Shown here: positions 11,389-33,606 of the stretch, piece by piece | How the letters are laid out: every line of letters begins with the position of its first letter | Position numbering within the stretch: position 1 is the first letter of the stretch | Source: an uncultured archaeon | Lineage (GTDB): Archaea; Asgardarchaeota; Lokiarchaeia; Sigyniarchaeales; SOKP01 | DNA: 37,768 nt | Reading direction: 5' to 3' | Assembly (NCBI GenBank): GCA_964508365.1 | Contig: CAZDTP010000040.1 | Span: 1 to 37,768, forward strand | Notes under the pieces: generated by a model | Databases searched by the model: none | What the model saw: the letters and a program-made list of their open reading frames with translations, nothing else | What the model was told of the DNA's origin: nothing | Made by a program: the position numbers and the translations under genes

Positions 11389-11401
11389 TTGAGGTGTTAA
11401 G

Positions 11402-14787: not shown

Positions 14788-14903
14788 CTTTGTAACCTCT
14801 AATTGTTATGAAACTTTATTTTTTTTGAATTTTATATCTCTTATAATTTCTATGAAAACATCGACAGAAAAACTAATAATTAAAGCAAATATCTGAACAG
14901 ATA

Positions 14904-16112: not shown

Positions 16113-16292
16113 AAGCAATAAAACCTTCTTTAAATACTAATCATTTATTGTTAGATAGATCATCCATTTTTTCATGAAAAATATTGTAATGTTTTTATTC
16201 GAGATTATGTCAAAAACTAAAAAACATATCTAATATTTTTCTATTTAAGTTATATATTTATACAACAACGAATCTGAGGAAGTCATTTTTTC

Positions 16293-17264: not shown

Positions 17265-17402
17265 TACAAATTCCTCATTAGTCTCATTTTATTTAGAAAT
17301 CATTTAAACTAAAAACAAGTTTTAAATACCTTATTCTCTCAAGATTAATTTTAGTGTTTTTAAAACATAGAAGGTAAAACTTAAAAACTTTTTTTCTAAA
17401 TC

Positions 17403-18329: not shown

Positions 18330-18503
18330 TTTTTTTGTGTATGAATAGTTAAGATCATTTTTGCTGAATTTTTTGCTAATTTCAATTACATATCAATAAA
18401 TCTTTTGATAAAATATATCTTTAAATTAAATCTTAACGTAAATTCATTTATTCAATAAATTTAACAATAAACAACGTTATCTATTTAAAACGAGGTTATA
18501 AAA

Positions 18504-19919: not shown

Positions 19920-20083
19920 AAAATTATATGGGTATATCAAATTAAACAATTTTATTTTTTTATTTCTTTCTTTTGATATTTTTATCAAATTATCTTAAAT
20001 AAACTCCGATTATTTCATTAGAACTCAAATCTTTTATAGTTTAACAACTAATATCACATAATTACATACAAGAAGCGATAAAA

Positions 20084-21583
20084 ATGAATAAATCGGATAT
20101 AATTGATACGACTTATGGGAAGATACAAGGTTATAAAGAGAACGGATTAGTAATATTTAAGGGTGTTCCTTATGCAGAACCTCCAATAAACGAACTACGA
20201 TTTTCTCCTCCCGTTGAGAAAAAACCTTGGGATGATGTATTGGATGCTAGTGAATATGGGCATTGTGCATACCAAGGATATTCTCAGCTCGAAGATTTTA
20301 CGGGTAAACTTCAACCCGAAAGTGAAGACTGTTTGAATCTTAATATCTGGACCCCTAATGTAGATAATAAGAAGCGCCCAGTGATGTTCTGGATACACGG
20401 GGGTGCATTTATTATGGGAGGTGGGATTGATACCATGTATGATGGTTCAGCCTTAGCCCGGCGAGGTGATGTTGTAATAGTTACTATTAATTATCGGTTA
20501 GGTGCTTTAGGTTATTTATACATTCCCGGTGTTACGGTCAATGTTGGGCAACTGGATCAAATATTAGCGCTTAAATGGGTTCACGATAATATTGAATTAT
20601 TTGGAGGGGATTCACATAATGTTACGATTTTTGGTGAATCTGCTGGGGGTTATTCAGTAGTTGCTTTAGCCGCCATGCCCGCAGCTAAGGGATTATTTCA
20701 TCGTATAATTGCTCAAAGCGCTCCTACTATTGATCCGAAGGTTACTAAAAAACCCACAAAAAAAATAATGCGTATGTTGGGTGTTGATACCAGCGATATT
20801 AACGCATTACGAAAGATATCACCTGAAAAAATAATCGATGCACAGAATAAGCTTTTAGCTGAAGATCCCACTAATCTTCTTGCTTTTCGACCTCTTATAG
20901 ATGGTGAAACATTACCAATACATCCTTTAAAGGCGTTTCAAAGTGGTGATTGTAAGGATATTGAATTTATGATTGGCACTAATCTGGAAGAGGCTAAGTT
21001 ATTTACAGCTCTTGATCCGGAAATAAGTAAATTGAATAATGTAGATGGCGAAAAACTCCTAATCGGTTTTTTGGGTAGATTAGGTATAGACATTACTAAA
21101 AGTAAAACGATGATCGATACATACAAGCAAGCGAGAGAAGGCAATTTTTCGATTGAATCTAAAGAAATTATGAATGCACTTATCACTGACTTTATGTTCC
21201 GCATTTCTACAATTCACTTGCTTGAAGCGCAGAGTAAATTTCAATCCAATACATATAATTACCTTTTTACCTGGCCATCTCCAGCATTTAACGGGGAATT
21301 AGGAGCATGCCACGCTCTTGAGATACCTTTCGTTTTTAACACGCTAAATAATCCTGCGTTTAAAGATTTCGTAGGTAACAGTCCAGATTTAAATGCTATT
21401 AGTCATAAAGTTATGGATGCTTGGATTGCATTTGCTCGTACTGGAAACCCAAACTACGATGGTATACCTAAGTGGCCGTCATATGATATTGAAAAGAGAT
21501 CAACTATGTTAATAGATCACGAGTTTAAAGTAGTTGAAAAGTTTCTTGATAAAGAACGAGCTGCTTGGGATGATCTTGTTTAG
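20084..21583 (+). CDS. Type-B carboxylesterase/lipase (PnbA-like)
   Basis: FKGVPYA, SEDCLNLNIW, HGGAF oxyanion hole, GESAG nucleophile, GTNLEE acid and GACHALEIPF His. Confidence 0.93.
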   Translation: MNKSDIIDTTYGKIQGYKENGLVIFKGVPYAEPPINELRFSPPVEKKPWDDVLDASEYGHCAYQGYSQLEDFTGKLQPESEDCLNLNIWTPNVDNKKRPVMFWIHGGAFIMGGGIDTMYDGSALARRGDVVIVTINYRLGALGYLYIPGVTVNVGQLDQILALKWVHDNIELFGGDSHNVTIFGESAGGYSVVALAAMPAAKGLFHRIIAQSAPTIDPKVTKKPTKKIMRMLGVDTSDINALRKISPEKIIDAQNKLLAEDPTNLLAFRPLIDGETLPIHPLKAFQSGDCKDIEFMIGTNLEEAKLFTALDPEISKLNNVDGEKLLIGFLGRLGIDITKSKTMIDTYKQAREGNFSIESKEIMNALITDFMFRISTIHLLEAQSKFQSNTYNYLFTWPSPAFNGELGACHALEIPFVFNTLNNPAFKDFVGNSPDLNAISHKVMDAWIAFARTGNPNYDGIPKWPSYDIEKRSTMLIDHEFKVVEKFLDKERAAWDDLV

Positions 21584-21615
21584 TAAAACTCAAAAATTTT
21601 TAATTTTTTTTTATT

Positions 21616-22398
21616 CTAATCTTTTTTAAGCCATTCTTTAAGTGCTGCTTTAACAGAGCGACGCATTTCCACTGAGTAATCTGCCCCTAATTTACCAAGA
21701 TAGAATTGTTGCCCCATATTTTCTGCTTCTTTTACTACGATTTTTCTCTCTTCACCCTTTAACATCTCGTTAAAATCCTTTTCGCTTAACCTAGAGTATT
21801 TGTCTGTAAACTGTATAAATTTTTGAGGAAAGCGATTCGTGAGGGGAATTTTGTTTTTATCTCCTTTAGGATATCCAAAACATATCAAAGTTATAGAAAA
21901 TACCCATTTAGGAAGTTTAAACATCTCACGATGAATTTCATAGTTTTCCATAATGTCTCCAATATAACAGGAGCCAATGCCTAACGCTTCAGCAGCAATT
22001 ACAGAATTTTGGGCAGCAATTAATGCATCACAACAAGCAAGAAGTAAATCAGATTCTTGGGGTGTTTGAAACTCTTTACCTATTTCATTGCATTTTTCCT
22101 TGACTTTACTTAATTTAAAGTAATCCCACCATCGCTGCATGTCAGCTAAAAACAACAAAACTAACGGTGCTTTTGCAATATGTGGTTGATTGTCGCAAGT
22201 TTTTACCAATTTTTCTTTTATTTTTTGATCAGATACTTGAATAATTGAATACATCATCAAATTTCCCGCTGTAGGGGCTTTTATTGCTCCTTGGATGATT
22301 GTATCTATTTCTTCTTGAGTTAGTGGTTTAGGGCTATAGGCTCTAATTGTTCTTCTACTATTAATTAAATTTATAGTATCATTATTTAGCTCAGTCAT
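21616..22398 (-). CDS. Nitroreductase/NADPH-flavin reductase, NfrA/Frp-like
   Basis: RRTIRAY, APTAGNLMMYSII, AAQNSVIAAEALGIGSCYIG, GYP. Confidence 0.9.
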   Translation of the reverse strand: MTELNNDTINLINSRRTIRAYSPKPLTQEEIDTIIQGAIKAPTAGNLMMYSIIQVSDQKIKEKLVKTCDNQPHIAKAPLVLLFLADMQRWWDYFKLSKVKEKCNEIGKEFQTPQESDLLLACCDALIAAQNSVIAAEALGIGSCYIGDIMENYEIHREMFKLPKWVFSITLICFGYPKGDKNKIPLTNRFPQKFIQFTDKYSRLSEKDFNEMLKGEERKIVVKEAENMGQQFYLGKLGADYSVEMRRSVKAALKEWLKKD

Positions 22399-22444: not shown

Positions 22445-24901
22445 TCATAATAATTTAAAAGTTTTAATTTTCCAAGGTTTTATTTTTGTTTGATTAGATT
22501 TAAGAGAACCCAATTCTTTCAAAAGGAAATCAACTTCTTTTATCTGGTTCCCAACTAAAATTCCATCTATTTTAATATCAATTTCTTCATTAGTTGGATT
22601 ATATGTCCTTAGATACAATCCTGTTTTGCGTCTCCATAAGAATACTATTGGAAGTGGGGGTTCTATAGACAAGAAGGATTGTTCTTCATCATTAATGCCT
22701 CTTAGTTCGTTTATACTAATCCCTAATAACCTAAAATAATAGGAATTCACAAATTCTAAAACCGAGAGGAAATCCCTTTTATCAGTAACAACTATAGCGA
22801 ATTCATATCTCCCTTTATCGTAAAGAATGTTATTAAGTTCAAAGTTTTCTTGGTTGATCTCAAATCTTTGACTATTTTTTTGAATATAGATAATTTGTTC
22901 GCTAATTCCCTTTAGCCATATAAAATCCAATGTTTGTATTTTTCTTCTTCTTGTTTCTTCGATTCCAAAAGGATAATTAATTAGAGATTTTTGTATATTG
23001 ACTTTCGGTGTGAGAATAACATGATTCTTATTATTAGTTTCAAGGATAATCTCAAGCCTATTTATTCCGCTGAATTGAACTATTTCAACCTTAAAACTCT
23101 GATTTTTAGCATTTCCTATAAAAATGTATTTTTCTTCTACATCATTGCGATACTTTTCTTTCAGCTCTAAATCGTATGGAATTAACAGAAGAAATGACAA
23201 TTCATAAACAAGCTTCTCCTTATATATGACTCCTATTTTTTTAAAATTGTCTAATAATTTTAGTTCATAGAAAAATATTGGCTTTGATTTTGGTATTTTG
23301 TTATGCTCCTCACTTGTAGAATAAATTTTATACCCAAATCCCGGTACTTCAGCTATGAATTTTCGATGAAAATTTTTTTGGTGCAATGGAAAGGAGATTA
23401 TATCTCTTCTTGAATAAGGAGTTGGATTAAAAACAAATAAGGTATTTGGATGTATTTCTGGATTTATTTGCTCTTTAAGAATTTCTTTGGCTATTTCTGA
23501 AAGTGCTACATTCATTTGGCTAGTACATGTATCTTGTATTTCTTTATGTATTTGAATACTCCACTCAGAAATAGTATTTGGATTTTTGGTTAGATTTATA
23601 TTACGAAGCTCTTCCATACTCAGTTGTATTTGCGAATATTCTCCCGATCGTAAGTGAGGGACCACATAGCAATCGTGAGCTTGGTTAGGTAATAATTTTT
23701 CCCATAATTGCTCAAAAAATGTATCCTTAGATTCTTTGTTAAAATAGCTTAAGATACTATTCAAGATTTCAGATATACTAATAAGGATTTCAGAATTTTT
23801 ATTATAAAGGAACAATTTGGATGACAGAAACAAGTTATCACTAAGACGAAATTCATCTCTTATATATTTAAAATCGCCTTCTTTCTCAGTCAATTCAAAG
23901 AACTCCGCTAAACTTAAAAATTTTCCAAAAATGTTTGAAAATTTAGACATTCGCCAGACTTCTTCTTGGTAAGGCATGTTATTCATGAAATCTTCAAGAC
24001 TCGAATATACTATTTTTTTCATAAAAGGACGAGCAACAGCTTGAAATAATAAATTAGGCAATTCTTGAAAAAAAGTACCATGCCAATACTCTCCATTAAA
24101 TATCCCTGATTGGTCTACGATAGCATCGAGCGAGGTGTTGTCTAATCCAATCCACCCAATGTGCGGTGAGTTAGCTGTTGGATTAATTCCTAATAAGCGA
24201 GTTCTTAGTGAGGCATATTTAATATTAAAGTTTTTTAATATTTGAGGAATTTGTGGGTGGATTGAACTTTCTGAGCAATAATACATATTAGAATCCAATC
24301 CAATTTTTTTAAGATTCTTTAATCCGTATTCAAAGTGTTTAATATTAGATTCTGGACCTATAATTAAGTTATAAGGTTGAGAGTATGAAGGGTTAATTAT
24401 TTCACACTTCCCACTTTTAAACAGCTTTAGAAATTCTTCAAAATTTTCTGGATATCTTTCATTCAACCACTCTAAACAACTTACAGCTACTTCTAAATTA
24501 TAAGGCATTTGATTATCATTAGCTTTTCGTATACTTTTTAATAAACGATCCAAGGAATCGCTTGGGTTATCAAATTCGCAGAATCCAATATCATTAATGA
24601 TAATTCCTCCATGCCATCCTACGATATATAATAATTCAGGCACAATTACTTTATGGATAGTTGATTTAAGCTTATTTAATAGGTTTACAAATTCTCTGCG
24701 TGTAATTTCCTCATTTTGTTGGAATTTTTGCTCGATAACATCCAGCTTCCCCCTAAATTTATCACAATTGAATCTAGGTTTTCTAATGGGAAATTTATTA
24801 ATGAAAATAAGAAATAAATCAAATATAGAGTTCAAAGCTTTAATATCTTCAAGTTTTATTTCATTTTGCTCATTATTCAACATGGTAAATAGATATAGCA
24901 C
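22445..24901 (-). CDS. Divergent GH38/GH57-clan glycoside hydrolase-like protein (start may be the ATG at 24883)
   Basis: EIINPSYSQP...GPESNIKHFEYG, PQIPQIL, LLPNQAHDCY, VFNPTPYSR, EVPGFGYK and LRTYNP follow GH38 architecture, but the canonical HxD and DxFG motifs are altered. Confidence 0.65.
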   Translation of the reverse strand: MLYLFTMLNNEQNEIKLEDIKALNSIFDLFLIFINKFPIRKPRFNCDKFRGKLDVIEQKFQQNEEITRREFVNLLNKLKSTIHKVIVPELLYIVGWHGGIIINDIGFCEFDNPSDSLDRLLKSIRKANDNQMPYNLEVAVSCLEWLNERYPENFEEFLKLFKSGKCEIINPSYSQPYNLIIGPESNIKHFEYGLKNLKKIGLDSNMYYCSESSIHPQIPQILKNFNIKYASLRTRLLGINPTANSPHIGWIGLDNTSLDAIVDQSGIFNGEYWHGTFFQELPNLLFQAVARPFMKKIVYSSLEDFMNNMPYQEEVWRMSKFSNIFGKFLSLAEFFELTEKEGDFKYIRDEFRLSDNLFLSSKLFLYNKNSEILISISEILNSILSYFNKESKDTFFEQLWEKLLPNQAHDCYVVPHLRSGEYSQIQLSMEELRNINLTKNPNTISEWSIQIHKEIQDTCTSQMNVALSEIAKEILKEQINPEIHPNTLFVFNPTPYSRRDIISFPLHQKNFHRKFIAEVPGFGYKIYSTSEEHNKIPKSKPIFFYELKLLDNFKKIGVIYKEKLVYELSFLLLIPYDLELKEKYRNDVEEKYIFIGNAKNQSFKVEIVQFSGINRLEIILETNNKNHVILTPKVNIQKSLINYPFGIEETRRRKIQTLDFIWLKGISEQIIYIQKNSQRFEINQENFELNNILYDKGRYEFAIVVTDKRDFLSVLEFVNSYYFRLLGISINELRGINDEEQSFLSIEPPLPIVFLWRRKTGLYLRTYNPTNEEIDIKIDGILVGNQIKEVDFLLKELGSLKSNQTKIKPWKIKTFKLL

Positions 24902-24915
24902 TATTTTTAGACAAA

Positions 24916-25587
24916 TTAAGGTAATTCTTTTTCTTTTTCAATATCAGTAGGATCGCGTCCTTTTTCTAATTGCTCAAACCACCATTTATCTGTAGAGATT
25001 ATTTCTTTTGCTTTTAATAAAACAGATTCAATATTATTTTGATTAACGATGACTACACCATTAATATCACCAAATATTAAATCTCCTGGAGTTATCACTC
25101 TATCTCCACATTTCACAGGTTTCATCACATTATCTAGATCTATAATCATTCTACCTCGAATTGATGAACTTATTACCCCTCTTGCAAAAATTGGGAAATT
25201 TAAAGAAATAACTTGTGAAATATCTCGGATTGGTCCATCAACCAAACCTCCTCGAAATCCTAAATCTTGAAGTAACCTGCTTGTGCTCTGTCCAAGTCCA
25301 GCAGCAATCATTTGACCTGACATATCAACACACATTATAGGATATTTGGGAAGTTTTCTCATAAATTTGACTAAACGAGCAATAATATTCCTCTCGAGTG
25401 GTTCATCAGAGAGTATCATCTTCATTGTCCCTGCTAAGCCGAGTATCCTCGAGCCAGGCCACATTGGTCTTATACCTGCATCAATAAAACCGGGTTCAAG
25501 ACCTAGCTCATCGATAGCATCTGAAACGGCGCAAGTATATAGTTTTGAATACTCTGCTATTATTGATCTAAGTTTATTCTCGTCCAT
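24916..25587 (-). CDS. RraA / HMG-CHA class II aldolase family protein
   Basis: AVSDAID, GLVDGPIRD metal/phosphate motif, FPIFARG and ITPGDLIFGDINGVV. Confidence 0.85.
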   Translation of the reverse strand: MDENKLRSIIAEYSKLYTCAVSDAIDELGLEPGFIDAGIRPMWPGSRILGLAGTMKMILSDEPLERNIIARLVKFMRKLPKYPIMCVDMSGQMIAAGLGQSTSRLLQDLGFRGGLVDGPIRDISQVISLNFPIFARGVISSSIRGRMIIDLDNVMKPVKCGDRVITPGDLIFGDINGVVIVNQNNIESVLLKAKEIISTDKWWFEQLEKGRDPTDIEKEKELP

Positions 25588-25635
25588 GATTTTCAGAGAT
25601 TAAGAAGTTATTTAAGAATATCAAAATATAATATA

Positions 25636-25676
25636 AAATGATACTTTTTCCATTATAAACTTATATAAATGATACT
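25636..25676. promoter_or_regulatory. Divergent promoter with direct repeat AAATGATACT x2 and TATA-like TTATATAAA
   Basis: Copies at 25636-25645 and 25667-25676 (31-bp spacing); TATA-like element at 25661-25669 between the rraA and ilvD-like starts. Confidence 0.45.
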
Positions 25677-25747
25677 GCGACTGAAATAAAGAAATAGTAA
25701 TTCTGTATAAGCTTAATAAAAATACTAATTGGGATTAGGTAATTAAG

Positions 25748-27418
25748 ATGGATAAAAATGAATTTGATCTAAAAAAAAGAAGTAGTAGTATTTTTGAGTG
25801 GACAAAAACAACCCCCTTTAATTATGTAACAAGGGGGATCATTAAAGGGGTGGGATTAGAGGATAAAGACATCGATAATAAACCCTTCATCGGTATTGCG
25901 AATACATGGAATGAACTCAATCCAGGTCATAAACATTTAAACGAACTTGCTGAGGCTGTAAAGTATGGAATCTTGGAAGCTGGTGGTCTACCTTTTGAAT
26001 TTTGTACGGTAGGACCTTGTGATGGTTGGGCTAATGGCAACGAAGGAATGCGTTATATTCTACCTCATAGAGAAGTTATTGCAGATTCAATTGAATTAAT
26101 GGTTCAAGCACATAGTTTGGATGCGTTAGTTACCATATCTAGTTGTGATAAAATTAATCCTGCAGTTTTAATGGCAGCAATTCGATTAGATATACCTACA
26201 ATTTGCGTTCCAGGCGGACCTAATTTTTATGAGATTAGATTCATGCCTGAGTATACTGGGATTGATCAGAACAACTACGATGACTTTGATTATAAAGTAA
26301 AATGCATTACTTGTGCGACACATGGATCATGTGAAATTATGGGAACCGCGAATACATTTCAATGCTTAATGGAAGCTTTTGGAATGACCTTGCCCAATGC
26401 AGCTACGATTCCAGCAGTTACACGCATGAAATATACAATCGCAAGAAATTCAGGAAGGCAAATTATCGATTTGCTTAGAAAAGGAATAACTCCCTCACAC
26501 ATAATGACGAAGAAATCGCTTGAAAATGCCCTAATGGTGGACCTAGCGATTGGCGGATCAACAAATTCCGCTTTACATCTCCCTGCAATAGCATATGAAA
26601 TGGGAATTGAATTTGATTTAGAAATGTTCAACGATTTTAGCAAAAAAATACCCACAATCGCAAATATTTATCCTTCTGGAAATTACGGTGCTGTAGATTT
26701 ATATAAAGCAGGGGGAATTCCAGCAGTAATGAATAGAATAAAAGAATATCTTAATCTGGATTGTTTAACTGTTACTGGAAAAACATTAGGGAAAATTATT
26801 CGAAGAGCTAAAGTATTAGACGAAGATATTATAAGACCACTGAATAACCCTGTTTTTCCCGAAGGTGGAACAGTTATACTAAAAGGAAATTTGGCTCCAG
26901 ATGGAGCTGTCGTTAAGCAATCTGGTGTTAAACACAAAGATATGCTTAAATTTTCAGGTCCAGCTATATGTTATAATTCAGAAGGAGAAGTTCTTGATGA
27001 TTTAGCTATGAATAAAATAGACAATGGTTCTGTACTTATCATTCGATATGAAGGTCCAAAAGGGGCTCCTGGTATGCCAGAATTGCTAGCAGTGACAGCA
27101 ACTCTTATGTTAAAGAAGAAATTAGATAGAGTTGCATTAATCACCGATGGTCGATTCTCTGGTGGCACCTCAGGACCTTGTATTGGACATGTAAGTCCTG
27201 AAGCATATGTTGGGGGACCAATCGCAGTTATTAAAAATGGTGATATTATCACTATTGATATCCCAAATCGGAAACTTATTGCAGAAATTAGCGATGATGA
27301 AATCAAAAATAGGTTAAATCAATGGAATCCCGTTGAAAAACCTATTAATAGTAAAGCCCTGTTGAAATATAAAAAATTAGTTTCATCAGCAGCTGAAGGA
27401 GCTATACTTAAGTTTTAA
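25748..27418 (+). CDS. ilvD: IlvD/Edd-family Fe-S dehydratase (dihydroxy-acid or sugar-acid dehydratase)
   Basis: NPGHKHL, PCDG, SCDK, GSCEIMGTAN, GGSTN, GNLAPDG, YEGPKGAPGMPE, TDGRFSG and GHVSPEA. The symbol denotes the family; substrate not established. Confidence 0.9.
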   Translation: MDKNEFDLKKRSSSIFEWTKTTPFNYVTRGIIKGVGLEDKDIDNKPFIGIANTWNELNPGHKHLNELAEAVKYGILEAGGLPFEFCTVGPCDGWANGNEGMRYILPHREVIADSIELMVQAHSLDALVTISSCDKINPAVLMAAIRLDIPTICVPGGPNFYEIRFMPEYTGIDQNNYDDFDYKVKCITCATHGSCEIMGTANTFQCLMEAFGMTLPNAATIPAVTRMKYTIARNSGRQIIDLLRKGITPSHIMTKKSLENALMVDLAIGGSTNSALHLPAIAYEMGIEFDLEMFNDFSKKIPTIANIYPSGNYGAVDLYKAGGIPAVMNRIKEYLNLDCLTVTGKTLGKIIRRAKVLDEDIIRPLNNPVFPEGGTVILKGNLAPDGAVVKQSGVKHKDMLKFSGPAICYNSEGEVLDDLAMNKIDNGSVLIIRYEGPKGAPGMPELLAVTATLMLKKKLDRVALITDGRFSGGTSGPCIGHVSPEAYVGGPIAVIKNGDIITIDIPNRKLIAEISDDEIKNRLNQWNPVEKPINSKALLKYKKLVSSAAEGAILKF

Positions 27419-27430
27419 AAAAAAAAAAAA
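27417..27430 (-). terminator. A14 run (T14 on minus strand), likely archaeal oligo-T terminator between convergent genes
   Basis: Homopolymer lies 26 nt past the stop of the minus-strand GPH gene. Confidence 0.45.
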
Positions 27431-27456
27431 TTAAGAGAAAAAATTTATTATTTTAA

Positions 27457-28866
27457 TTATATTCTTGCTTTTTTAGCTTCATGAATCTCTGCTAGCTTAT
27501 TCTTAATATTGGCTAGATTTTCACCATGTAAAGGATATTTCCACATCGCTAAAATAATAACTGTTAAAGCTATTGCGGGAAATACGAAGGCTAAGAATTT
27601 TAATCCTAAAATTTGCTCAGGGGTAATCGCTGAAACTTCAGGTTCGTGAATTCTCCATCCAACATTGGTAAATACAAGGCTAATTGCGAGAAAAACGAAT
27701 ATATAGCCTACTCTCAAGAAAAAAATATAATTACCGAAAAAACTTGCATCTCTTCTAGTTCCAGTTTTCAGCTCATCTTCATCAATAATATCTGAAACAA
27801 TTAAATCCTTAGAATAAAGTGATCCTCCTAAACCTATACCAACAAAGAAAAATACGATAAAGGCTAAAATAAGATTTAAATCAAATATTAATGGTAATAA
27901 TGTAACCATCCAAACCGCAGAAGAAATCATCCACATTTTTCTTACACCGATCTTTGTTGCCAATCGTTTCCATATTAATGTAATAGATAAAGCTGCAGCG
28001 ATAAAAGCCAGACCCAATAAAAGTGAGAGAATTATCCCTTCCTGTCCCAATACGTATTTTCCATATAGAGGAATGATTGTTGGGAGAATTGTATCAACAA
28101 AAAAATCACCCATAAAAGCAGGTATTGCCCATCTAAATGATTTACTTTTCAAAGTTGTTTTAAATGAAGTAAAAAAACCGGGGACTTCCTTATGATCTTG
28201 CTGGAACTCTGGTCTTTCTCTTGGTGTAAACTTTAAAAAGAGTAAACCGACAATTATAATTATAACTGTTAATGTAATTCCAAAAAAGGCGTATTCAATG
28301 ACATATTTGGGATCTGAATAGTCTTTAATAAAAAACCCTGGAAGAAGAAACGCAAAAATTAAACCTACTATAGCAAAAACTTGTCGTATATTGTTAGCTT
28401 TCAACCGAGCATCCTTAGTGATAAATATTTCTGGAAGCATGGAAGTGAGATTGATGTCGTAAGTTGTATAGCAGAATTCAAAGAGTATAATAATAACAAC
28501 AAAATAGATGAAGTTGATTGTAGTATCAGTGATTCCATAAGAAAAAGGTGGAAAAAACAGGAAAAACATTACAACGGCTAATGGAACTAATAAAACCATG
28601 ATATACGGTCTTCGACGTCCCCATCGTGTATGAGTTCTGTCACTTAGAAAACCCATTAATGGGTCGTTGAACGCGTTCCATACTGACCATATAATAAACC
28701 CTAATGTAATTAAATCTAGAGGAATTCTTACTACCGTGAAATAAAATGTAAATATCAAAAATGTAAACGCTTGGTATGATGTTATGAGAGATATCTGACC
28801 AAAACTATAACCTACTGCTCCTTTTGCAGAATAATCGCTAGATAAATCATTATCCACAATAATCAC
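27457..28866 (-). CDS. GPH-family glycoside/cation symporter, MFS
   Basis: GYSFGQ, VWNAFNDPLMGFLSDRTHTRWGRRRPY, GTRRDASFFG; GTG start. Confidence 0.9.
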   Translation of the reverse strand: MIIVDNDLSSDYSAKGAVGYSFGQISLITSYQAFTFLIFTFYFTVVRIPLDLITLGFIIWSVWNAFNDPLMGFLSDRTHTRWGRRRPYIMVLLVPLAVVMFFLFFPPFSYGITDTTINFIYFVVIIILFEFCYTTYDINLTSMLPEIFITKDARLKANNIRQVFAIVGLIFAFLLPGFFIKDYSDPKYVIEYAFFGITLTVIIIIVGLLFLKFTPRERPEFQQDHKEVPGFFTSFKTTLKSKSFRWAIPAFMGDFFVDTILPTIIPLYGKYVLGQEGIILSLLLGLAFIAAALSITLIWKRLATKIGVRKMWMISSAVWMVTLLPLIFDLNLILAFIVFFFVGIGLGGSLYSKDLIVSDIIDEDELKTGTRRDASFFGNYIFFLRVGYIFVFLAISLVFTNVGWRIHEPEVSAITPEQILGLKFLAFVFPAIALTVIILAMWKYPLHGENLANIKNKLAEIHEAKKARI

Positions 28867-28943
28867 TTTTTTAAAAATTAAGTTATAATATGTTATAGGA
28901 CAAAAGTATTAAAAAAGCTTTAAGAATTTGAGGCAGAAAAAAA

Positions 28944-30806
28944 TTAATAATAGTCAATATTCAATTCTGTCAATTTTTCCTTAGTTGGTATCCCGTTATT
29001 ATCCCAACCTCTAAGGTTGTAATATTCTTCAAGCATATTTTCAATTTTTACAATTTTATTCTTAGTAAGACCTCTTTCCAATGGATACTGTAGTCTTGGT
29101 GGAATTCTATCGTCTTTTCGCGTAATACCGCACTTGGTATTAAAAAGTCTTTTTAATGTGAAAATTCTTTCCCCAATCTCTAAAAGATCACGAAGATTTA
29201 AGCGAATGCCGTGTAAATAATAAATAGAATCTAATATTAAATCAAAGATTTTATCAACGATTTGCGAACCTGAAGATATTGTTTGTCGGCAAATCCCTAA
29301 CGCATTGTTAATTTCAGATATATTTTGAGTTATAACAACATCATTGGCAAATTCTGGTCTATCAACCGTCCTTTCTCTTATAGATATTGGTTTTGTAATA
29401 TCAAAAGTTTTTTCGAAACCAGTGAATCCAGAATATGTATCATTAGCAAAACCTCGTAAATGACAAGCACCACGGTTAGATGTTGCGTATTGTAATCCAA
29501 GAGGAAATATAGCGCGTGGGTCATGCATCGGAGCTTCAAGGCCTTTGACTTCTGTTAAAAAATCATTAGATCCTTTTCCAATATGTTTTGAGGCTTTTTT
29601 TGAGCCTTGACCTAATAATTTGCCAATTCCTTCATTTTCACATATTAAGTTAGTCAATCTAATAATCGCTTCAGTATCACCCCACACTAGCGGGAACCCA
29701 ACCTCACTTTCAGTTAAAATTCCTTTTTCATAGCAATCAAGTGCGAATGCAATCGTACAGCCTGTTGAGATTGTATCGACACCCATTATATTACAAATAT
29801 GGTTTAAATATGCGATTGCTTCGACATCAGAAATTAGACACATCGATCCAAAAGCAGCAGTTGTTTCATACTCTGCTCCCGCTGCGTTTTCTATTTTATA
29901 ACGCCCTTCGTTAATCTCAATTTCTCGGCCACAGCTAAATGGACATAGATAGCAGGGTTTATTCTTTACATGTAACCGATCAAAAACTACTTCTCCCGAA
30001 ATATTTGATACTTCTCGCCATTTGTGTAATGTCCAATTCTTATGAGGAACATCACATAATCGTTCAAAATACGAAATATTATTCGTACCAAATTTCCGCA
30101 AAATTTCCGCCATAGGAGATTTTTGAAATGAAGTAAAAAGTTTCTTCGCAATTTCTTTAAATTTCTCCTCGTTAAAGTATTCGACTTTTTTAGTGCTTTT
30201 TAATGCGATTGCCTTTAAGTTTTTCGAACCCATTACCGCACCCATGCCAGTTCTTCCTACAGCTCTATGATGATCGTTAATTATTGAAGATAAAGGTACT
30301 CTTTTTTCTCCAGAAGGTCCGATACAAGCGATCTTAAACTGACTCCCCAATTTGGACTGGAGGTTATGGATCGTCTTATCTGTGGTCATTCCCCAAATCG
30401 AGGAAGCATCTTTAAATTCGTAATGATCATTATCAATTACTAAATATAAAGGGGAGTTGGATATATTTTTAAAAACGATACCTGTTAAACTTCTTCTTAA
30501 TTCGGCTCCAAAGAAGCCTCCTGACATCCCCTCTCCATAAATATTAGTTAAAGGAGACTTCGCAGTTACGGAATAAAATCCAGAACATGGATATGCCGTA
30601 CCTGATAAAAGGCCTGTCATAAAAATCAAGGGATTATTTTCATCTAAGGGATCATTCTGATATCCTTTTTCCTTCATTAGGAGATCGATAGCAAAACCAG
30701 GTCCTCCTAGCAAGGAAGTGATGCATTGCTTGTTAATAAAACTCTCTTTGAAAGATTGATTCTTTAAATCTACTTCTAGAATTTTACCTAGTACTTCTTG
30801 TGCCAT
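28944..30806 (-). CDS. aor: Tungsten aldehyde:ferredoxin oxidoreductase family
   Basis: AKSPLT, GRTGMGAVMGSKNLKAI, CYLCPFSC, EYET, DTIS, HDPR, NRGACHL and YYNLRGWDNNG. Confidence 0.93.
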   Translation of the reverse strand: MAQEVLGKILEVDLKNQSFKESFINKQCITSLLGGPGFAIDLLMKEKGYQNDPLDENNPLIFMTGLLSGTAYPCSGFYSVTAKSPLTNIYGEGMSGGFFGAELRRSLTGIVFKNISNSPLYLVIDNDHYEFKDASSIWGMTTDKTIHNLQSKLGSQFKIACIGPSGEKRVPLSSIINDHHRAVGRTGMGAVMGSKNLKAIALKSTKKVEYFNEEKFKEIAKKLFTSFQKSPMAEILRKFGTNNISYFERLCDVPHKNWTLHKWREVSNISGEVVFDRLHVKNKPCYLCPFSCGREIEINEGRYKIENAAGAEYETTAAFGSMCLISDVEAIAYLNHICNIMGVDTISTGCTIAFALDCYEKGILTESEVGFPLVWGDTEAIIRLTNLICENEGIGKLLGQGSKKASKHIGKGSNDFLTEVKGLEAPMHDPRAIFPLGLQYATSNRGACHLRGFANDTYSGFTGFEKTFDITKPISIRERTVDRPEFANDVVITQNISEINNALGICRQTISSGSQIVDKIFDLILDSIYYLHGIRLNLRDLLEIGERIFTLKRLFNTKCGITRKDDRIPPRLQYPLERGLTKNKIVKIENMLEEYYNLRGWDNNGIPTKEKLTELNIDYY

Positions 30807-30943
30807 AATAATACCAATAAAAATAGATTAGTTATAACATCTAAATAAGGATTATAGTTCTAAATGGTAATTAATGCTCATTCTTAAGTTTTAAGAGAAC
30901 ATGTTAGATGGAAAAAAAAGTCAATAGATTAATTTTTCTTTTA

Positions 30944-32182
30944 TTAGAGCTCTTTTGGTAATTGATTGCTACATGGAAAAATTCCAATTTTGGGGGTGTT
31001 CCCATACATTTGTTCTAAATCTTTCACTAATTCTTGAAAATTAGTATGAAAAATTGTAGTGTCAGGATAATAATGCAATACATCTCTTTTATTGATGTTT
31101 TGAGAAAATATGCAAAACTTCTTCTTTTTCAATATCCCCTTAAATATGACTGTATCTCCCCAATTTTTATAAAGTTTTCCACCTGTTTCTCCTAACAAGG
31201 AATGAAATCCTCTTCCTTCACTAGCCGCAGTTAAAAGTACAATTGCCCCTTCCCGTTTAATGAAACTTTTTGATTTTAAAAAGAAATTTAATCCCTTTAA
31301 AGCTTGAGATAATTCCGTATCTTCGGGGTATAGGTTAAAGAATCCGATATCGAGGTTTAAATCTGGTGGTAAATTCGTTGAGTAAACATTTTTTGCTAAT
31401 TCCATAGCCTTTCGATGCGCCTTTATAAAATCCCCAGCAAAAATCCCTCCTACCTTTCTTGTCATTGTAGGTATAAGATTTATGGAAAAATCTAACCCTA
31501 CTTTTTTACATGTATCCTCAATATCTTTCCTTAAATCTGTTACAATTCCCAACCCTATTCCTACTCCCCTTACTCCTGCTTGATGATTTGCCTCAAGGGT
31601 TTGAATTCCACATAAACCTGGAAGAACCACTTTAGCTCCCCCCCCATACCCTGCCAAAGGATGTGGTATTACGCAACCAATCGCAATTTTTACCTCAGCA
31701 TCATAATAGGTTTTGTTTATAAAAATCGGAGTATCTTTGTATGAATCTCCGATGTAAACAAGATTTTCATAGGGGTGGTGATTTTCTATTTTTATTTTGT
31801 CAACAATTTTTAGACCAACTTTTTTGATTGAATCTTGTCTATTCATAGGTCGGTGAGCGCCCAGAGCATATATTAAAGTAATGTTATCATTTGTTATTCC
31901 AGCCATGTTTAATTGGTGTAAAACTATTTCTAAGATACTTTCTGCTTGAATTGGTCTTGATATGTCTTCAACCGCAATTACCGCGTTACTTTTCCCTTTC
32001 GCTATTTCTTGAATTGTAGAAGTCCCAATAGGATTACTGAAAGCTGTTTTAATATCTTCTTGGGATAGTTCAGAAGCATCTTGCATCTTGTAGATATTGA
32101 CATCCCAAGTATCTGGAAATTCAAGTTTTAAGTCTTTATCCCCGTACCAAGCTGCCCAAGGAACATTAAAGGTTTGTACCAT
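30944..32182 (-). CDS. larA: LarA-superfamily nickel-pincer hydroxyacid racemase/epimerase
   Basis: EDISRP, ALGAHRP, PHPLAGYGGGAKVVLPG, EANH and SQALKG correspond to the conserved LarA catalytic and cofactor-binding residues. Substrate not established. Confidence 0.88.
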   Translation of the reverse strand: MVQTFNVPWAAWYGDKDLKLEFPDTWDVNIYKMQDASELSQEDIKTAFSNPIGTSTIQEIAKGKSNAVIAVEDISRPIQAESILEIVLHQLNMAGITNDNITLIYALGAHRPMNRQDSIKKVGLKIVDKIKIENHHPYENLVYIGDSYKDTPIFINKTYYDAEVKIAIGCVIPHPLAGYGGGAKVVLPGLCGIQTLEANHQAGVRGVGIGLGIVTDLRKDIEDTCKKVGLDFSINLIPTMTRKVGGIFAGDFIKAHRKAMELAKNVYSTNLPPDLNLDIGFFNLYPEDTELSQALKGLNFFLKSKSFIKREGAIVLLTAASEGRGFHSLLGETGGKLYKNWGDTVIFKGILKKKKFCIFSQNINKRDVLHYYPDTTIFHTNFQELVKDLEQMYGNTPKIGIFPCSNQLPKEL

Positions 32183-32385: not shown

Positions 32386-32979
32386 ATGAGTCTTAAGAGA
32401 AATAAGATCATAAGTAAAATTACTTCGATTTCCACAAGTATTACTTCTTTTCTTATTCCTTTTTTTCAATATGTCCCTTGTACGGCAATATGGTTCGGTA
32501 TAATGAGTGTCCCATTACTATCGTATTTAGCATTGTTTTTTCAGTACCCTAGCATTCTATTATATGACTTAAGATTCTTAGTCGGAACTTATGGATTCAA
32601 TATCATAATGTTTGGGTTAATATTATACATCTCCTGTTTAATCTATCAATTATCACACAGGAGTCAATTAATTAAAAGGGGACCTTATAGGATTGTAAGA
32701 CACCCTCAATATCTTTCTTTTATTATCATGACATTAGGGATGACAATAGTGGCATTTCAGACATCGCCAATTTTTGAATTCCCAGTTTCTTATGAAACTA
32801 GATTTAGCTTTTTAATTTTTATTTGGATTGTTGAGGTATTAGCTTACATTCTATTGGGGAAAATCGAAGAATTTGCCTTAAAATCAAAACATGGAGATGA
32901 ATTCCTAGGGTATAGAAATAGAGTAGCTTTTATTATTCCATTCTTAAAAATACAAGGCAATAAAATTGAAAAAGAATAA
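32386..32979 (+). CDS. ICMT/PEMT-family membrane methyltransferase, copy 1
   Basis: GPYRIVRHPQY, IEEFAL...G..F..YRNRVAFIIPF. Confidence 0.8.
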   Translation: MSLKRNKIISKITSISTSITSFLIPFFQYVPCTAIWFGIMSVPLLSYLALFFQYPSILLYDLRFLVGTYGFNIIMFGLILYISCLIYQLSHRSQLIKRGPYRIVRHPQYLSFIIMTLGMTIVAFQTSPIFEFPVSYETRFSFLIFIWIVEVLAYILLGKIEEFALKSKHGDEFLGYRNRVAFIIPFLKIQGNKIEKE

Positions 32980-33006
32980 TTCGTAATAATTATACTGGAA
33001 TCTAAT

Positions 33007-33606
33007 ATGGATTTTAGAGAAAGTAAAATTAAAAAAAAAATTGAGGCAATATCTACGAGAATTTCTTCAATATTCATCCCAATTTTTCAATACGTACCTT
33101 GCTTATCCGTATGGTGTGGCATAATGAGCGTGCCATTAATAACTTATTTAATTTTATTCTTTCAGAATCCCAAAATTCTCTCAAATGACCTTTATTTTTT
33201 ATTTCAAGCTCCTAGTATTTATTTTATTTTTTTTGGTTTCTGGCTTTTTGTTTACTCATTAATTTTTCAATTAGCCCATAGAAAGCAGTTGATTCAAACT
33301 GGACCATATAAATATATAAGACACCCTCAATATCTATCGTTCATTTTAATGACATTTGGAATGACACTAGTAGTTTTTCAGACATCACCAATTTTTGAAT
33401 TCGCAGTTTCTCATGAAAATCAATACGGTATTTTGGTTTTAATTTGGATTGTTGAAGTAGTAGCTTACATTCTATTGGGAAAGATCGAGGAAATTGCCTT
33501 AAAAGCTAAATATGGAATTAAATTCCTAGAGTATAGAAATAGAGTCGCTTTCATTATTCCATTCTTAAAATTCAAGGCAATAAAATCGAAAAAGCATACA
33601 TTATAA
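33007..33606 (+). CDS. ICMT/PEMT-family membrane methyltransferase, copy 2 (tandem paralogue)
   Basis: GPYKYIRHPQY, IEEIAL...YRNRVAFIIPF; collinear with copy 1. Confidence 0.8.
   Translation: MDFRESKIKKKIEAISTRISSIFIPIFQYVPCLSVWCGIMSVPLITYLILFFQNPKILSNDLYFLFQAPSIYFIFFGFWLFVYSLIFQLAHRKQLIQTGPYKYIRHPQYLSFILMTFGMTLVVFQTSPIFEFAVSHENQYGILVLIWIVEVVAYILLGKIEEIALKAKYGIKFLEYRNRVAFIIPFLKFKAIKSKKHTL

Follow-up and report, generated by a model that had tools for sequence, protein, structure and literature searches.

Six contiguous genes of an uncultured Lokiarchaeia archaeon belong to a conserved, optional gene set of Asgard archaea and are not chance neighbours. They lie in a 37,768-nucleotide stretch of DNA (the window) and encode a GH38-like protein, an RraA-like protein, an IlvD/Edd dehydratase, a GPH carrier, an aldehyde:ferredoxin oxidoreductase (AOR) and a LarA-superfamily protein. 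To one reading of their joint function we assign a probability of roughly 55%: a glycoside would be taken up and hydrolysed, IlvD would dehydrate an aldonate, an RraA-type aldolase would cleave the product, and the aldehyde would be oxidised in a ferredoxin-linked reaction. All substrates and reactions of this route are ones that we infer from the families and their neighbourhoods.

Organisation and conservation of the cluster

Pfam and NCBIfam profile searches of the six ORFs agreed with the families named in a first-pass annotation of the window, and the ORF limits were exactly those it had given (Table 1). The genes are arranged in three transcription units on both strands. As the annotation had remarked for kinases, NAD(P) sugar dehydrogenases and classic KD(P)G aldolases, these classes are missing from the six genes; the same profiles show no DHDPS- or Eda-type aldolase among them either, and none of these enzymes is encoded by the flanking genes scanned (13609-22398 and 32386-34340). 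The lack of a kinase is, however, a property of the cluster and not of the pathway, since a MOFRL glycerate kinase is encoded elsewhere in the genome.

Table 1. Positions of the six genes and of the conserved spacer element in the window
Feature	Position	Strand	Length or basis
GH38-like	22445..24901	-	818 aa
RraA-like	24916..25587	-	223 aa
Conserved spacer element (candidate promoter or operator)	25635..25660	.	spacer comparison
IlvD/Edd accessory paralogue	25748..27418	+	556 aa
GPH (MFS_2) carrier	27457..28866	-	469 aa
AOR	28944..30806	-	620 aa
LarA superfamily	30944..32182	-	412 aa

With the RraA-like gene as anchor, we compared 36 species-level loci from Asgard archaea of the Lokiarchaeia type (Promethearchaeia). 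The GH38-like gene adjoins it in 30 loci; IlvD accompanies it in 27, AOR (at least 55% identity) in 21, LarA in 11 and GPH (at least 60% identity) in 9. Where at least 5 kb was available on both sides (15 loci), IlvD is always present, followed by the GH38-like gene (13), AOR (12), LarA (8) and GPH (5). Gene order is shuffled between genera, and many loci contain all six genes or some of them. For GPH and AOR, with about 30 and about 15 paralogues in the genome, neighbourhood by chance has to be taken seriously; the conservation of orthologues across genera removes this doubt for AOR and does so only in part for GPH. The loci are not independent observations, as most come from one archaeal family. 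The co-conservation expected from the first-pass annotation thus holds across genera for the GH38-like, RraA-like, IlvD and AOR genes, whereas LarA and the orthologous GPH carrier are optional; some loci without that carrier have other GPH paralogues.

Properties of the encoded proteins

IlvD matches ILVD_EDD_N (386 bits) and ILV_EDD_C (239 bits) in Pfam, keeps the three Cys ligands and a TDGRFSGGT motif (DHAD-type GRFSG), and passes the ilvD equivalog model TIGR00110 of NCBIfam (631 against a cut-off of 618). Its best matches among solved structures are DHADs (6ovt, 410 bits); solved pentonate and hexonate dehydratases are more distant, L-arabinonate dehydratase scoring 342 bits, and this counts against our preferred reading. 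Copies with 62-100% identity occur in 42 of 121 genomes of the family (about a third), while a second, DHAD-like copy of about 40-47% identity is found in nearly every family genome sampled. In the tree the accessory copies form a clade with an SH-aLRT of 99, and the housekeeping copies form a separate one. The accessory type is present in 18 of 19 family genomes positive for the RraA-like gene, the exception being a cluster that ends at a contig edge, and in none of the 20 negative ones, those listed by name. These observations support IlvD as a dedicated accessory paralogue of the cluster beside a separate DHAD-like copy, in agreement with the earlier proposal, and ilvC is found elsewhere in the genome. 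We propose that it would act as a sugar-acid (aldonate) dehydratase; the DHAD of Sulfolobus dehydrates gluconate and D-glycerate (PMC6692406).

The RraA-like protein has a Pfam match of 86.5 bits and stays under every NCBIfam equivalog cut-off, far under those of all characterised aldolase models. Its nearest solved structures are 3K4I (uncharacterised) and 3NOJ, an HMG/CHA aldolase, of which it keeps the catalytic Arg-Asp dyad (R121-D122), although the equivalent of Asp102 is Gln100. The gene is single-copy in the genome; among the matches listed, all 120 closest homologues are at least 74% identical, and the named ones almost all carry Asgard labels. The protein is probably a class II pyruvate aldolase whose substrate would be a 4-hydroxy-2-oxo (2-keto-3-deoxy) acid. 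One characterised RraA-like enzyme, FlDet, has no aldolase role and works instead as a 2-keto-3-deoxy-hexarate dehydratase/decarboxylase (PMC8563752); this, the low aldolase-model scores and the Gln at the Asp102 position weigh against our preferred reading.

By its profile matches (AFOR_N 216 bits, AFOR_C 388 bits) and nearest solved structures (9mqx, 377 bits; 1aor, 365 bits), AOR is an aldehyde:ferredoxin oxidoreductase of the AOR sensu stricto type, whose metal may be tungsten or molybdenum, the sequence not discriminating between them. A ferredoxin-dependent glyceraldehyde oxidoreductase is part of the archaeal non-phosphorylative Entner-Doudoroff (ED) branch (PMC2063504), and we propose that AOR oxidises the aldehyde set free by the aldolase. 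In five loci AOR directly adjoins the RraA-like gene on the same strand, and in a distant Asgard genome (L063) it forms a triad with an RraA-like gene (43% identity) and a lactate-racemase-like LarA. Two further loci (L076, L078) carry a paralogous cluster of TrmB-like regulator, LarA, esterase, two-subunit UxaA/GarD-like dehydratase, AOR, DHDPS-family protein, IlvD and GPH. There a DHDPS-type aldolase-family gene adjoins AOR in place of the RraA-like gene, so that two unrelated folds occur as aldolase-family partners of AOR and this IlvD clade. Such non-orthologous displacement supports the link between aldolase and AOR.

Sister operons of three species contain an extended SDR and a metallo-beta-lactamase (MBL) protein and no AOR; an AOR orthologue is absent from the genomes whose cluster has this pair instead. 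Pairs of SDR and MBL proteins are the usual form of the sugar dehydrogenase and lactonase step, and this pair may have the same function. However, the SDR is closest to UDP-glucose 4-epimerases, which makes the proposed sugar dehydrogenase function conjectural too, and no uronate dehydrogenase is among its solved relatives. The cluster of the window encodes no enzyme leading from sugar to aldonate, and its genome has no orthologue of the sister-cluster SDR or MBL protein; this gap likewise counts against our preferred reading.

The GH38-like ORF follows the RraA-like gene after 14 bp, on the same strand, and its product is probably cytoplasmic. Its Pfam matches to GH38N (29.7 bits), GH57 and GH38C2 are weak. 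An AlphaFold2 model (pLDDT 87, pTM 0.89) was matched end to end by Foldseek to GH38 alpha-mannosidases (6lz1, 2wyi; TMq 0.65-0.72, about 12% identity). Spacing and HMMER alignment suggest that the invariant residues H97, E211, R235, H409 and D410 correspond to the metal and nucleophile motifs of GH38, in which case Glu would occupy the nucleophile position where GH38 has Asp. The carrier matches MFS_2/GPH with 197 bits and stays under the cut-off of TIGR00792 (172.5 against 231); it likely imports a glycoside. Within the 160-bp spacer between the divergent RraA-like and IlvD genes, an element of about 25 bp (AATGATAyTwwTTTGATTATAA-like) is retained in different genera, in contrast to the remaining spacer, which diverges (17 loci compared). 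Its 10-mer taken by itself shows no over-representation in the window, and the element is a candidate for a shared promoter or operator.

LarA has a Lar_N domain (181 bits, Pfam), and its best matches are malate racemases both in the PDB and in NCBIfam (LarAH6, 236 bits against a cut-off of 500). The residues H110 (His108 of LarA1), H174, K184 and H200 are invariant. The specificity positions (P175, L176, W, G) fit none of the described groups, gluconate 2-epimerases included, and the marker Lys of malate racemases at the T359 position is Gly here (PMC11770544). The protein would thus be a nickel-pincer 2-hydroxyacid racemase or epimerase of an undescribed subgroup. Homologues isomerise gluconate/mannonate, glycerate and lactate (PMC7583248, PMC11770544), some of them favouring glycerate (PMC11770544). 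Since the pattern matches no described group, the role of aldonate C2-epimerase given to LarA by the first-pass annotation is only one of two placements, whereas its assignment to the superfamily stands: LarA might act on the aldonate before dehydration or, about equally probably, on a small hydroxy-acid product afterwards. The cofactor genes that the annotation had expected are all present elsewhere in the genome, larB and larC on one contig and larE on another. One genome has the cluster and no LarA of this type; LarA is hence dispensable in some genomes, which counts against our preferred reading. Two other loci hold LarA-IlvD pairs without an RraA-like gene.

Proposed route and competing readings

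In the preferred route, a glycoside would be imported by the GPH symporter and its sugar released by the cytoplasmic GH38-fold enzyme. The sugar would then be oxidised to an aldonic acid, here possibly by AOR or an unlinked enzyme, in the sister clusters perhaps by the SDR and MBL proteins. The accessory IlvD would turn this 2,3-dihydroxy acid into a 2-keto-3-deoxy acid, from which the RraA-like protein, as a metal-dependent class II aldolase, would form pyruvate and an aldehyde (glyceraldehyde, lactaldehyde or glycolaldehyde). AOR would convert the aldehyde to the acid and reduce ferredoxin. Where LarA is present, it might invert C2 of the aldonate before this is dehydrated (for example from mannonate to gluconate) or that of the small product, lactate or glycerate, later; glycerate, if formed, could be fed into lower glycolysis by the unlinked MOFRL glycerate kinase. 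This retains from the earlier proposal the co-conservation, the dedicated IlvD, the cofactor genes and the aldolase-AOR link; missing from it are an aldonate-forming enzyme and a constant place for LarA and GPH.

The main rival, unlikely in our view, is a Weimberg-type or oxidative uronate/aldarate route. Here IlvD would dehydrate a pentonate or aldarate, the RraA-like protein would convert the resulting 2-keto-3-deoxy acid, by dehydration with or without decarboxylation, to 2-oxoglutarate semialdehyde, and AOR would oxidise this to 2-oxoglutarate; AOR might also turn uronate into aldarate, and LarA might epimerise aldarate or aldonate. FlDet has exactly the activity needed, and the DHDPS family also contains KdgD-type dehydratases, the L076 protein scoring higher on the KdgD model (68 bits) than on that of archaeal KDG-aldolase (58 bits). 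The UxaA/GarD-like dehydratase of the paralogous cluster has galactarate dehydratase as its best model, GPH carriers include hexuronide carriers, and the complementary distribution of AOR and the SDR-MBL pair would fit AOR replacing a uronate or aldose dehydrogenase. However, we know of no IlvD-family aldarate dehydratase, and RraA-like enzymes are best characterised for aldol cleavage and the decarboxylation of oxaloacetate. The relatives of the SDR point away from this route as well, and the recurrent link to LarA, including that in L063, agrees better with a small 2-hydroxy acid as product than with 2-oxoglutarate.

Three other readings seem very improbable. A sulfoquinovoside could be imported and hydrolysed, with IlvD dehydrating sulfogluconate, cleavage giving pyruvate and sulfolactaldehyde, AOR forming sulfolactate and LarA racemising it for a sulfo-lyase. 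In its favour, the known sulfo-ED pathway combines an IlvD/Edd-family dehydratase with an SDR dehydrogenase, a lactonase, an aldolase and an aldehyde dehydrogenase, GPH-type carriers import sulfoquinovose, and the product would be a 2-hydroxy acid that is chiral. The two-subunit enzyme (SAF plus UxaA-like) of the paralogous cluster and of G000:C29 has what we take to be the architecture of the sulfolactate sulfo-lyase SuyAB. But known sulfoquinovosidases belong to GH31, the UxaA-like gene lies outside this cluster and has the galactarate model as its best, in the vicinity of the cluster no genes for handling sulfite were seen, and no sulfonate-specific feature was found. Just as doubtful is the use of dicarboxylic hydroxy acids, in which LarA would epimerise tartrate or a similar 2,3-dihydroxy-dicarboxylate, IlvD would form oxaloacetate and the RraA-like protein would decarboxylate it to pyruvate. 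The malate-racemase matches of LarA, the oxaloacetate decarboxylase activity of RraA/HMG aldolases (in the name of NCBIfam NF006731) and the 2,3-dihydroxy acids that IlvD accepts agree with it; the missing malate-racemase Lys does not, and the GH38-like protein, GPH and AOR, which we regard as more tightly linked to the core than LarA, would have no role. The alternative raised in the first-pass annotation, hydrolysis of mannosylglycerate by the GH38-like protein with racemisation of glycerate by LarA and dehydration to pyruvate by IlvD, deserves equally little credence. It agrees with the sole NCBIfam match of the GH38-like protein (mannosylglycerate hydrolase, 43 bits against a cut-off of 1138), the glycerate preference of some LarA homologues, the D-glycerate activity of Sulfolobus DHAD and the LarA-IlvD pairs lacking an RraA-like gene, but it leaves the RraA-like protein and AOR, both core members, and the fate of mannose unexplained, and LarA is only optional. 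Least probable, and already disfavoured, is the absence of any common pathway, with IlvD as an ordinary branched-chain amino-acid enzyme among unrelated neighbours: the ilvD cut-off, the many AOR and GPH paralogues and the three transcription units would allow it, but the orthologue-level linkage survives rearrangements across genera, this IlvD type tracks the RraA-like gene and a separate DHAD-like copy is near-universal.

In conclusion, the cluster is most likely an accessory catabolic set of Lokiarchaeia-type (Promethearchaeia) Asgard archaea, through which a glycoside would be broken down via a non-phosphorylated sugar acid to pyruvate.

Layout and conservation of the gene cluster

The first-pass annotation had described six contiguous genes, and both the limits and the families it gave agree with the exact open reading frames and with the Pfam and NCBIfam matches that we obtained (see the list of cluster genes). 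It had also remarked that a kinase, an NAD(P)-dependent sugar dehydrogenase and a classical KD(P)G aldolase are missing from the cluster; we found none of them among the six genes or in the flanks that were scanned (13609-22398, 32386-34340). Contig C40 of the genome G000 (4.07 Mb, 32% GC, 149 contigs) constitutes the window. The names on the closest RraA-like homologues and related loci include Promethearchaeota, Promethearchaeia, Lokiarchaeota, Helarchaeota and Candidatus Sigynarchaeum, which identifies the host as an Asgard archaeon of the Loki type.

Genes of the cluster, with position in the window, strand and domain evidence
Gene	Position	Strand	Domain evidence
GH38-like	22445-24901	-	weak GH38N, GH57 and GH38C2 matches
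RraA-like	24916-25587	-	RraA-like domain
IlvD/Edd	25748-27418	+	both family domains; ilvD equivalog cut-off (TIGR00110) narrowly exceeded (631 vs 618 bits)
MFS_2/GPH carrier	27457-28866	-	Pfam MFS_2
AOR	28944-30806	-	two AFOR domains
LarA	30944-32182	-	Lar_N domain; under all LarA-subgroup cut-offs

The genes form three transcription units. The RraA-like gene is followed by the GH38-like gene after a gap of 14 bp, IlvD diverges from this pair across a spacer of 160 bp, and LarA, AOR and the GPH carrier follow one another in a unit convergent with IlvD. Within the divergent spacer (25588-25747) lies an element of ~25 bp (core ~25635-25660, AATGATAyTwwTTTGATTATAA-like), represented in the window by two exact AAATGATACT copies 31 bp apart. 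When orthologous spacers were compared, this element was conserved across genera while the remaining spacer sequence diverged, and it may be a shared promoter or operator. As an over-represented motif the AAATGATACT repeat has no significance within the window, and it is the conservation between orthologous spacers alone that stands. At one locus (L057, G207:C9) an IS605 OrfB/TnpB-type gene (10927-12204) separates the RraA-like gene from IlvD and breaks this otherwise constant divergent pair.

Since G000 contains ~30 GPH and ~15 AOR paralogues, adjacency of a carrier and an AOR means little by itself; IlvD and LarA occur twice each, the RraA-like and the GH38-like gene once each. The two expansions (~30 tblastn matches for GPH/MFS_2, ~15 for the AOR family) suggest a wide capacity for glycoside uptake and aldehyde oxidation. 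Linkage was followed in 20 neighbourhoods around RraA-like orthologues and, separately, at 36 species-level loci, 15 of which have at least 5 kb on either side of the RraA-like gene (see the list of linkage counts). The cluster genes are co-conserved across genera, and this orthologue-level comparison settles the question of chance adjacency for the AOR and, in part, for the GPH carrier. Gene order and orientation vary between genera, which favours selection on linkage over inherited synteny. From the counts at the 36 loci it follows that the GH38-like, RraA-like, IlvD and AOR genes are the core of the cluster and that LarA and the window GPH carrier are optional modules.

Genes of the window type found beside the RraA-like gene
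Gene	All loci	Loci with full flanks
GH38-like	30/36	13/15
IlvD	27/36	15/15
AOR	21/36	12/15
LarA	11/36	8/15
GPH orthologue	9/36	5/15

ICMT-like genes, an HTH regulator, a carboxylesterase and a nitroreductase were also considered as members; they are present at 1 to 3 of the 36 loci and are local passengers or synteny. Carboxylesterase or esterase genes do recur, in differing arrangements, beside clusters with IlvD and LarA (window 20084-21583; L051, L081, L076), and it may be that substrates of the pathway are esterified or acetylated. In one genus the cluster (L087, G301:C3; L088, G304:C60) includes a B12-binding radical SAM protein of ~660 aa, a second, distant RraA-like gene (26-28% identity) and a PCC-domain gene. 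In one genus, too, a fixed block encoding a GlcD-like FAD oxidase, a CCG-domain iron-sulfur protein, a CdhC-like protein and a CbiA/NifH-like ATPase flanks the cluster or an IlvD-LarA remnant of it (L046, L053, L055, L056, L082, L085, L086). Two public contigs carry the Asgard cluster at 71-95% identity under the labels 'Candidatus Nanopelagicaceae bacterium' (L091, DATKTW010000125.1) and 'Candidatus Deferrimicrobium sp.' (L112, DATKTP010000100.1); these are probably mislabelled bins.

Candidate enzymes for hydrolysis, dehydration, cleavage and aldehyde oxidation

The IlvD protein has both family domains (PF00920, 386 bits; PF24877, 239 bits), and an alignment with its paralogue shows PCDG, SCDK, a third Cys and TDGRFSGGT, so that the Fe-S cysteine ligands and the GRxSG motif of the serine base are kept (motif mapping after PMC5770437). 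Against models of the biosynthetic dihydroxy-acid dehydratase (DHAD) it falls above TIGR00110 and just below PRK00911 (642.5 vs 644). Of 121 genomes in the family, 42 encode an IlvD of the window type (62-100% identity), and nearly all have a second type (~40-47% identity), the counterpart of G000:C3:12731-14398. The window type was found in 18 of the 19 RraA-like-positive genomes sampled in both searches, the exception being cut by a contig end, and in no RraA-like-negative genome among the 20 listed by name. A quick maximum-likelihood tree resolves the accessory clade (29 rows, SH-aLRT 99), the housekeeping clade (100) and a third type as distinct. On the strength of this distribution, the tracking of the RraA-like gene and the tree, the refuting case named by the first-pass annotation, a window IlvD that is the only DHAD of the genome, does not apply: a separate and near-universal DHAD-like copy exists. 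Distribution and phylogeny also speak against ordinary DHAD activity as the main role of the window IlvD, its sequence motifs being DHAD-like nonetheless. Gene context adds that ilvC is located elsewhere in G000 and that no ilv operon surrounds either IlvD copy. The housekeeping copy (L003, G000:C3:5000-24000) is flanked by two Gfo/Idh/MocA oxidoreductases and a DNA methyltransferase; ~3 kb away lies a gene for a TPP enzyme that misses the cut-off for acetolactate synthase, and larE is ~15 kb away.

Among solved structures, DHADs outscore pentonate and galactonate dehydratases as matches to the accessory IlvD. The DHAD of Saccharolobus solfataricus is promiscuous and dehydrates gluconate and glycerate (PMC6692406), and it is the relevant precedent for the accessory IlvD as a putative sugar-acid dehydratase. 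A synthetic kinase-free glycolysis has been built on this enzyme, in which, as would be the case here, a DHAD-type IlvD is combined with a KDG aldolase and an enzyme that oxidises aldehydes (PMC6692406). That system is a man-made cascade around one promiscuous housekeeping enzyme, whereas in the window a separate accessory paralogue, a putative sugar-acid dehydratase, is genetically linked to the proposed aldolase and to the AOR.

The RraA-like protein covers the full-length PF03737 profile (86.5 bits). Its R121-D122 pair is invariant in 12 orthologues and aligns to the RD of 3NOJ, the HMG/CHA aldolase whose Pseudomonas putida residues Arg123 and Asp124 are catalytic and metal-binding. Fold family and Arg-Asp dyad are thus shared with the HMG/CHA aldolases (LigK/ProA/GalC); unlike these, the protein has an invariant Gln100 at the equivalent of Asp102 and stays far from equivalog level (TIGR02798, 59 vs 304.5 bits; NF006731, 64 vs 179 bits), and it occurs in a setting of carbohydrate rather than aromatic breakdown. 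Its nearest solved relative, 3K4I, is uncharacterised. The RraA-like family also includes non-aldolase activities, as documented for FlDet, a 2-keto-3-deoxy-hexarate dehydratase/decarboxylase (PMC8563752). This precedent favours the chief rival to an aldolase role, in which the RraA-like protein would act as a dehydratase/decarboxylase and deliver 2-oxoglutarate semialdehyde to the AOR.

The AOR (aldehyde:ferredoxin oxidoreductase) has both family domains (PF02730, 216 bits; PF01314, 388 bits), matches 1AOR at 365 bits and resembles, by its closest solved structures, the broad-specificity AOR sensu stricto. It is the immediate same-strand neighbour of the RraA-like gene at five loci (L112, L115, L118, L120, L123), and in a distant Asgard genome (L063) an operon consists of AOR, an RraA-like gene (43% identity) and LarA. 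In paralogous clusters around the accessory IlvD clade a DHDPS-family gene stands beside the AOR instead of the RraA-like gene. One of these (L076, G207:C3:22700-42699) reads TrmB-like regulator, LarA (54%), esterase, two-subunit dehydratase (SAF small and UxaA/GarD-like large subunit), AOR (35%), DHDPS-family protein, IlvD (63%) and GPH; another (L078, G301:C1) has a similar gene set, and as judged from gene content such paralogous clusters represent a putative second ferredoxin-linked sugar-acid module. The archaeal branch of the non-phosphorylative Entner-Doudoroff (ED) pathway uses a ferredoxin-dependent glyceraldehyde oxidoreductase (PMC2063504). Because of the adjacency to AOR, the displacement by a DHDPS-family gene and the type and precedent of the AOR, we infer that the RraA-like protein acts on the product of IlvD and upstream of the AOR.

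Elsewhere in G000 (L137, G000:C29:30000-42000) a two-subunit SAF and UxaA-like dehydratase, 65% identical to that of L076, is transcribed away from a further AOR paralogue; its neighbours include LutA/LutB-like iron-sulfur proteins of lactate oxidation, a 2-oxoacid:ferredoxin oxidoreductase and a BhcC-like aldolase. RraA-like homologues of ~38% identity in the Asgard family f9 were set aside, their context being different (glycyl-radical enzyme, aminotransferase, PfkB kinase, Eda-type aldolase). This f9 block (L064-L074), in which the aminotransferase is of class I/II, is strongly conserved and also carries GlcD/CCG oxidase and URO-D-like genes. For bacterial and Caldivirga RraA-like homologues (~30% identity) a consistent gene context was not found.

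For the GH38-like protein the predicted model (pLDDT 87) has a full-length Foldseek match to GH38 alpha-mannosidases (E ~1e-29, TMq 0.65-0.72, ~12% identity), and in Pfam the GH38N match reaches 29.7 bits against a cut-off of 25, with GH57 nearly equal. H97, E211, R235 and H409-D410 are invariant and correspond, by spacing and HMMER alignment, to the metal and nucleophile motifs of GH38. The protein thus shares with Ams1, SpGH38 and Golgi mannosidase II the multi-domain fold over its full length and the His and His-Asp motifs of the metal site; it differs from them in its low identity and in Glu211, which would occupy the position of the Asp nucleophile of GH38 and in this would resemble GH57. 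The family is small (~40 sequence clusters with E <=1e-30), and its named relatives are mostly uncultured archaea (Promethearchaeota, Thermoprotei, Bathyarchaeota), to which a language-model search added Bacillota. The Thermoprotei relative lies in a carbohydrate context (Gfo/Idh/MocA oxidoreductase, xylose-isomerase-like barrels, hydrolase, lactate-permease-like carrier) but points to no substrate. The GPH carrier is above the cut-off of Pfam MFS_2 (197 bits) and below that of TIGR00792 (172.5 vs 231.35).

Sugar oxidation and the place of LarA

An enzyme leading from sugar to aldonate (aldose dehydrogenase, lactonase) was found neither in the window cluster nor in its scanned flanks. In three species from two deeper lineages (L061/L121, L062/L122 and L119, the last from Candidatus Sigynarchaeum) an extended SDR gene directly follows the RraA-like gene. 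At L061 and L119 it is followed by a gene of metallo-beta-lactamase (MBL) fold and then by IlvD and LarA; the L062 locus ends with its contig inside the SDR gene. A pair of SDR and MBL proteins is the usual form of a dehydrogenase with its lactonase. The nearest solved relatives of this SDR are UDP-glucose 4-epimerases, for which reason we rejected it as a uronate dehydrogenase and regard its dehydrogenase role itself as putative. The clusters with SDR and MBL carry no AOR, and no orthologue of the cluster AOR was found in two searched genomes of this type (best 39% identity); G000, for its part, lacks orthologues of the SDR and of the MBL protein of the sister clusters. With few independent lineages at hand, this complementarity can mean that the AOR took over sugar oxidation and, equally, that the step missing from a cluster is carried out in each lineage by unlinked enzymes. 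A Fe-ADH-like gene beside the Sigynarchaeum operon was considered and dismissed; being closest to glycerol-1-phosphate dehydrogenase, it is probably a lipid housekeeping gene.

The LarA protein belongs to its superfamily by the Lar_N domain (PF09861, 181 bits) and by invariant residues, namely both catalytic histidines (H110, the counterpart of LarA1 His108, and H174), the cofactor-tethering K184 and the nickel-binding H200. The cofactor genes that the first-pass annotation expected elsewhere in the genome are indeed present, all above their cut-offs (LarC, C27, 324 bits; LarB, C27, 240 bits; LarE, C3, 273 bits). Unlike in known LarA groups, the C-terminal third is unmatched by models and each NCBIfam equivalog cut-off is missed by >250 bits. 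At the LarA1 positions 175, 176, 358 and 359, from which specificity is predicted, the signature residues have been described as E, V, A, H in gluconate 2-epimerase (GntE), F, F, W, E/Q in lactate racemase (LAR) and x, x, H/Q, K in malate racemase (MAR) (PMC11770544). In the window type these residues are P, L, W and G, the C-terminal part of the alignment being of modest confidence, and the combination fits no signature of a lactate, malate or 2-hydroxyglutarate racemase or of a gluconate 2-epimerase (PMC11770544); in keeping the Trp, the protein is more like the lactate racemases with their small substrates than like the epimerases.

Two placements of LarA can be considered. For a position after the AOR speaks that it adjoins the AOR at nearly all loci with both genes, that the LarA of the L063 triad is lactate-racemase-like (V, F, W, C), and that in one genus the cluster has GlcD/GlcF-type 2-hydroxy-acid oxidase genes as neighbours. 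For a position before IlvD speaks that LarA adjoins IlvD in operons that lack an AOR and in the paralogous pairs L075 and L082; in addition, a GH38-type mannosidase would give mannose, and mannonate would require C2 inversion for a DHAD-type enzyme. One genome (G231) has the cluster and lacks a LarA of the window type, and therefore LarA widens the pathway and does not define it.

Proposed route and its meaning

The candidate dehydratase, aldolase and aldehyde-oxidising genes are linked and co-conserved, and their families differ from those of the classical enzymes. As far as sequence comparison can tell, the best-supported mechanism would be a non-phosphorylative pathway that converts a sugar acid to pyruvate with non-classical enzymes. 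In it the IlvD paralogue, an RraA-type aldolase and the AOR would be fed by the GH38-fold glycosidase and the GPH carrier, and LarA would be an optional helper that inverts a stereocentre. The general interpretation of the first-pass annotation thus fares unevenly: its observation of the gene set holds, its sugar-acid pathway is supported in part, and its description as kinase-free applies to the cluster alone. A MOFRL glycerate kinase is encoded at G000:C26 (97 bits), and of 42 genomes sampled from the genus 36 have one, with or without the cluster. Being near-universal in the genus, it was rejected as a trait linked to the cluster; by its presence in genome and genus, a conventional exit for glycerate exists.

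The proposed route resembles the non-phosphorylative ED pathway of archaea (Thermoproteus tenax, Sulfolobus/Saccharolobus, Thermoplasmatales) and the Dahms-type pentose route in its sequence of aldonate dehydration, aldol cleavage to pyruvate and an aldehyde, and aldehyde oxidation. In extracts of T. tenax this last oxidation is ferredoxin-dependent (PMC2063504), and the MOFRL glycerate kinase is common to the archaeal pathway and G000. In contrast to the archaeal pathway, the dehydratase would be an IlvD paralogue instead of an enolase-superfamily gluconate dehydratase and the proposed aldolase an RraA-like (class II) protein instead of a DHDPS-type KD(P)G aldolase. The cluster further includes a GH38-fold glycosidase, a GPH carrier and a nickel-pincer isomerase, it lacks a sugar dehydrogenase, and it belongs to an Asgard archaeon of mesophilic sediment life.

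A bolder and rather improbable idea is that the cluster might be the natural phosphate-free and NAD-free counterpart of a synthetic 'minimal glycolysis'. The AOR would then oxidise the free aldose to the aldonate, replacing the NAD-dependent sugar dehydrogenase and the lactonase, and also the aldehyde from cleavage; the accessory IlvD would dehydrate both the aldonate and D-glycerate, and LarA would supply the right stereoisomer. In this way a hexose would yield two pyruvates with four enzymes and ferredoxin as the sole carrier. The idea would fit because of the complementarity between AOR and the SDR and MBL pair, the recurring LarA-IlvD pairs and the double role of the Sulfolobus DHAD (PMC6692406).

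No description of this gene combination turned up in literature searches. No relatives of eukaryotes closer than the Asgard archaea are known; these archaea abound in sediments, and their diet has been deduced almost wholly from genomes. Through the non-phosphorylative sugar-acid route, a physiological role would be assigned for the first time to an RraA-like protein outside aromatic catabolism, and likewise to one of the numerous AORs of Asgard archaea, an undescribed subgroup of LarA and a glycosidase family intermediate between GH38 and GH57. For the genes of the cluster the automatic labels 'dihydroxy-acid dehydratase', 'RNase E regulator' and 'lactate racemase' are all probably either incorrect or incomplete, and its enzymes would be of interest to builders of cell-free sugar-acid cascades. 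A ferredoxin-linked route that invests no ATP in its upper part would suit energy-limited fermenters, and within one Lokiarchaeia family the cluster marks carbohydrate degradation as an optional trait, present in roughly a quarter to a third of its members.
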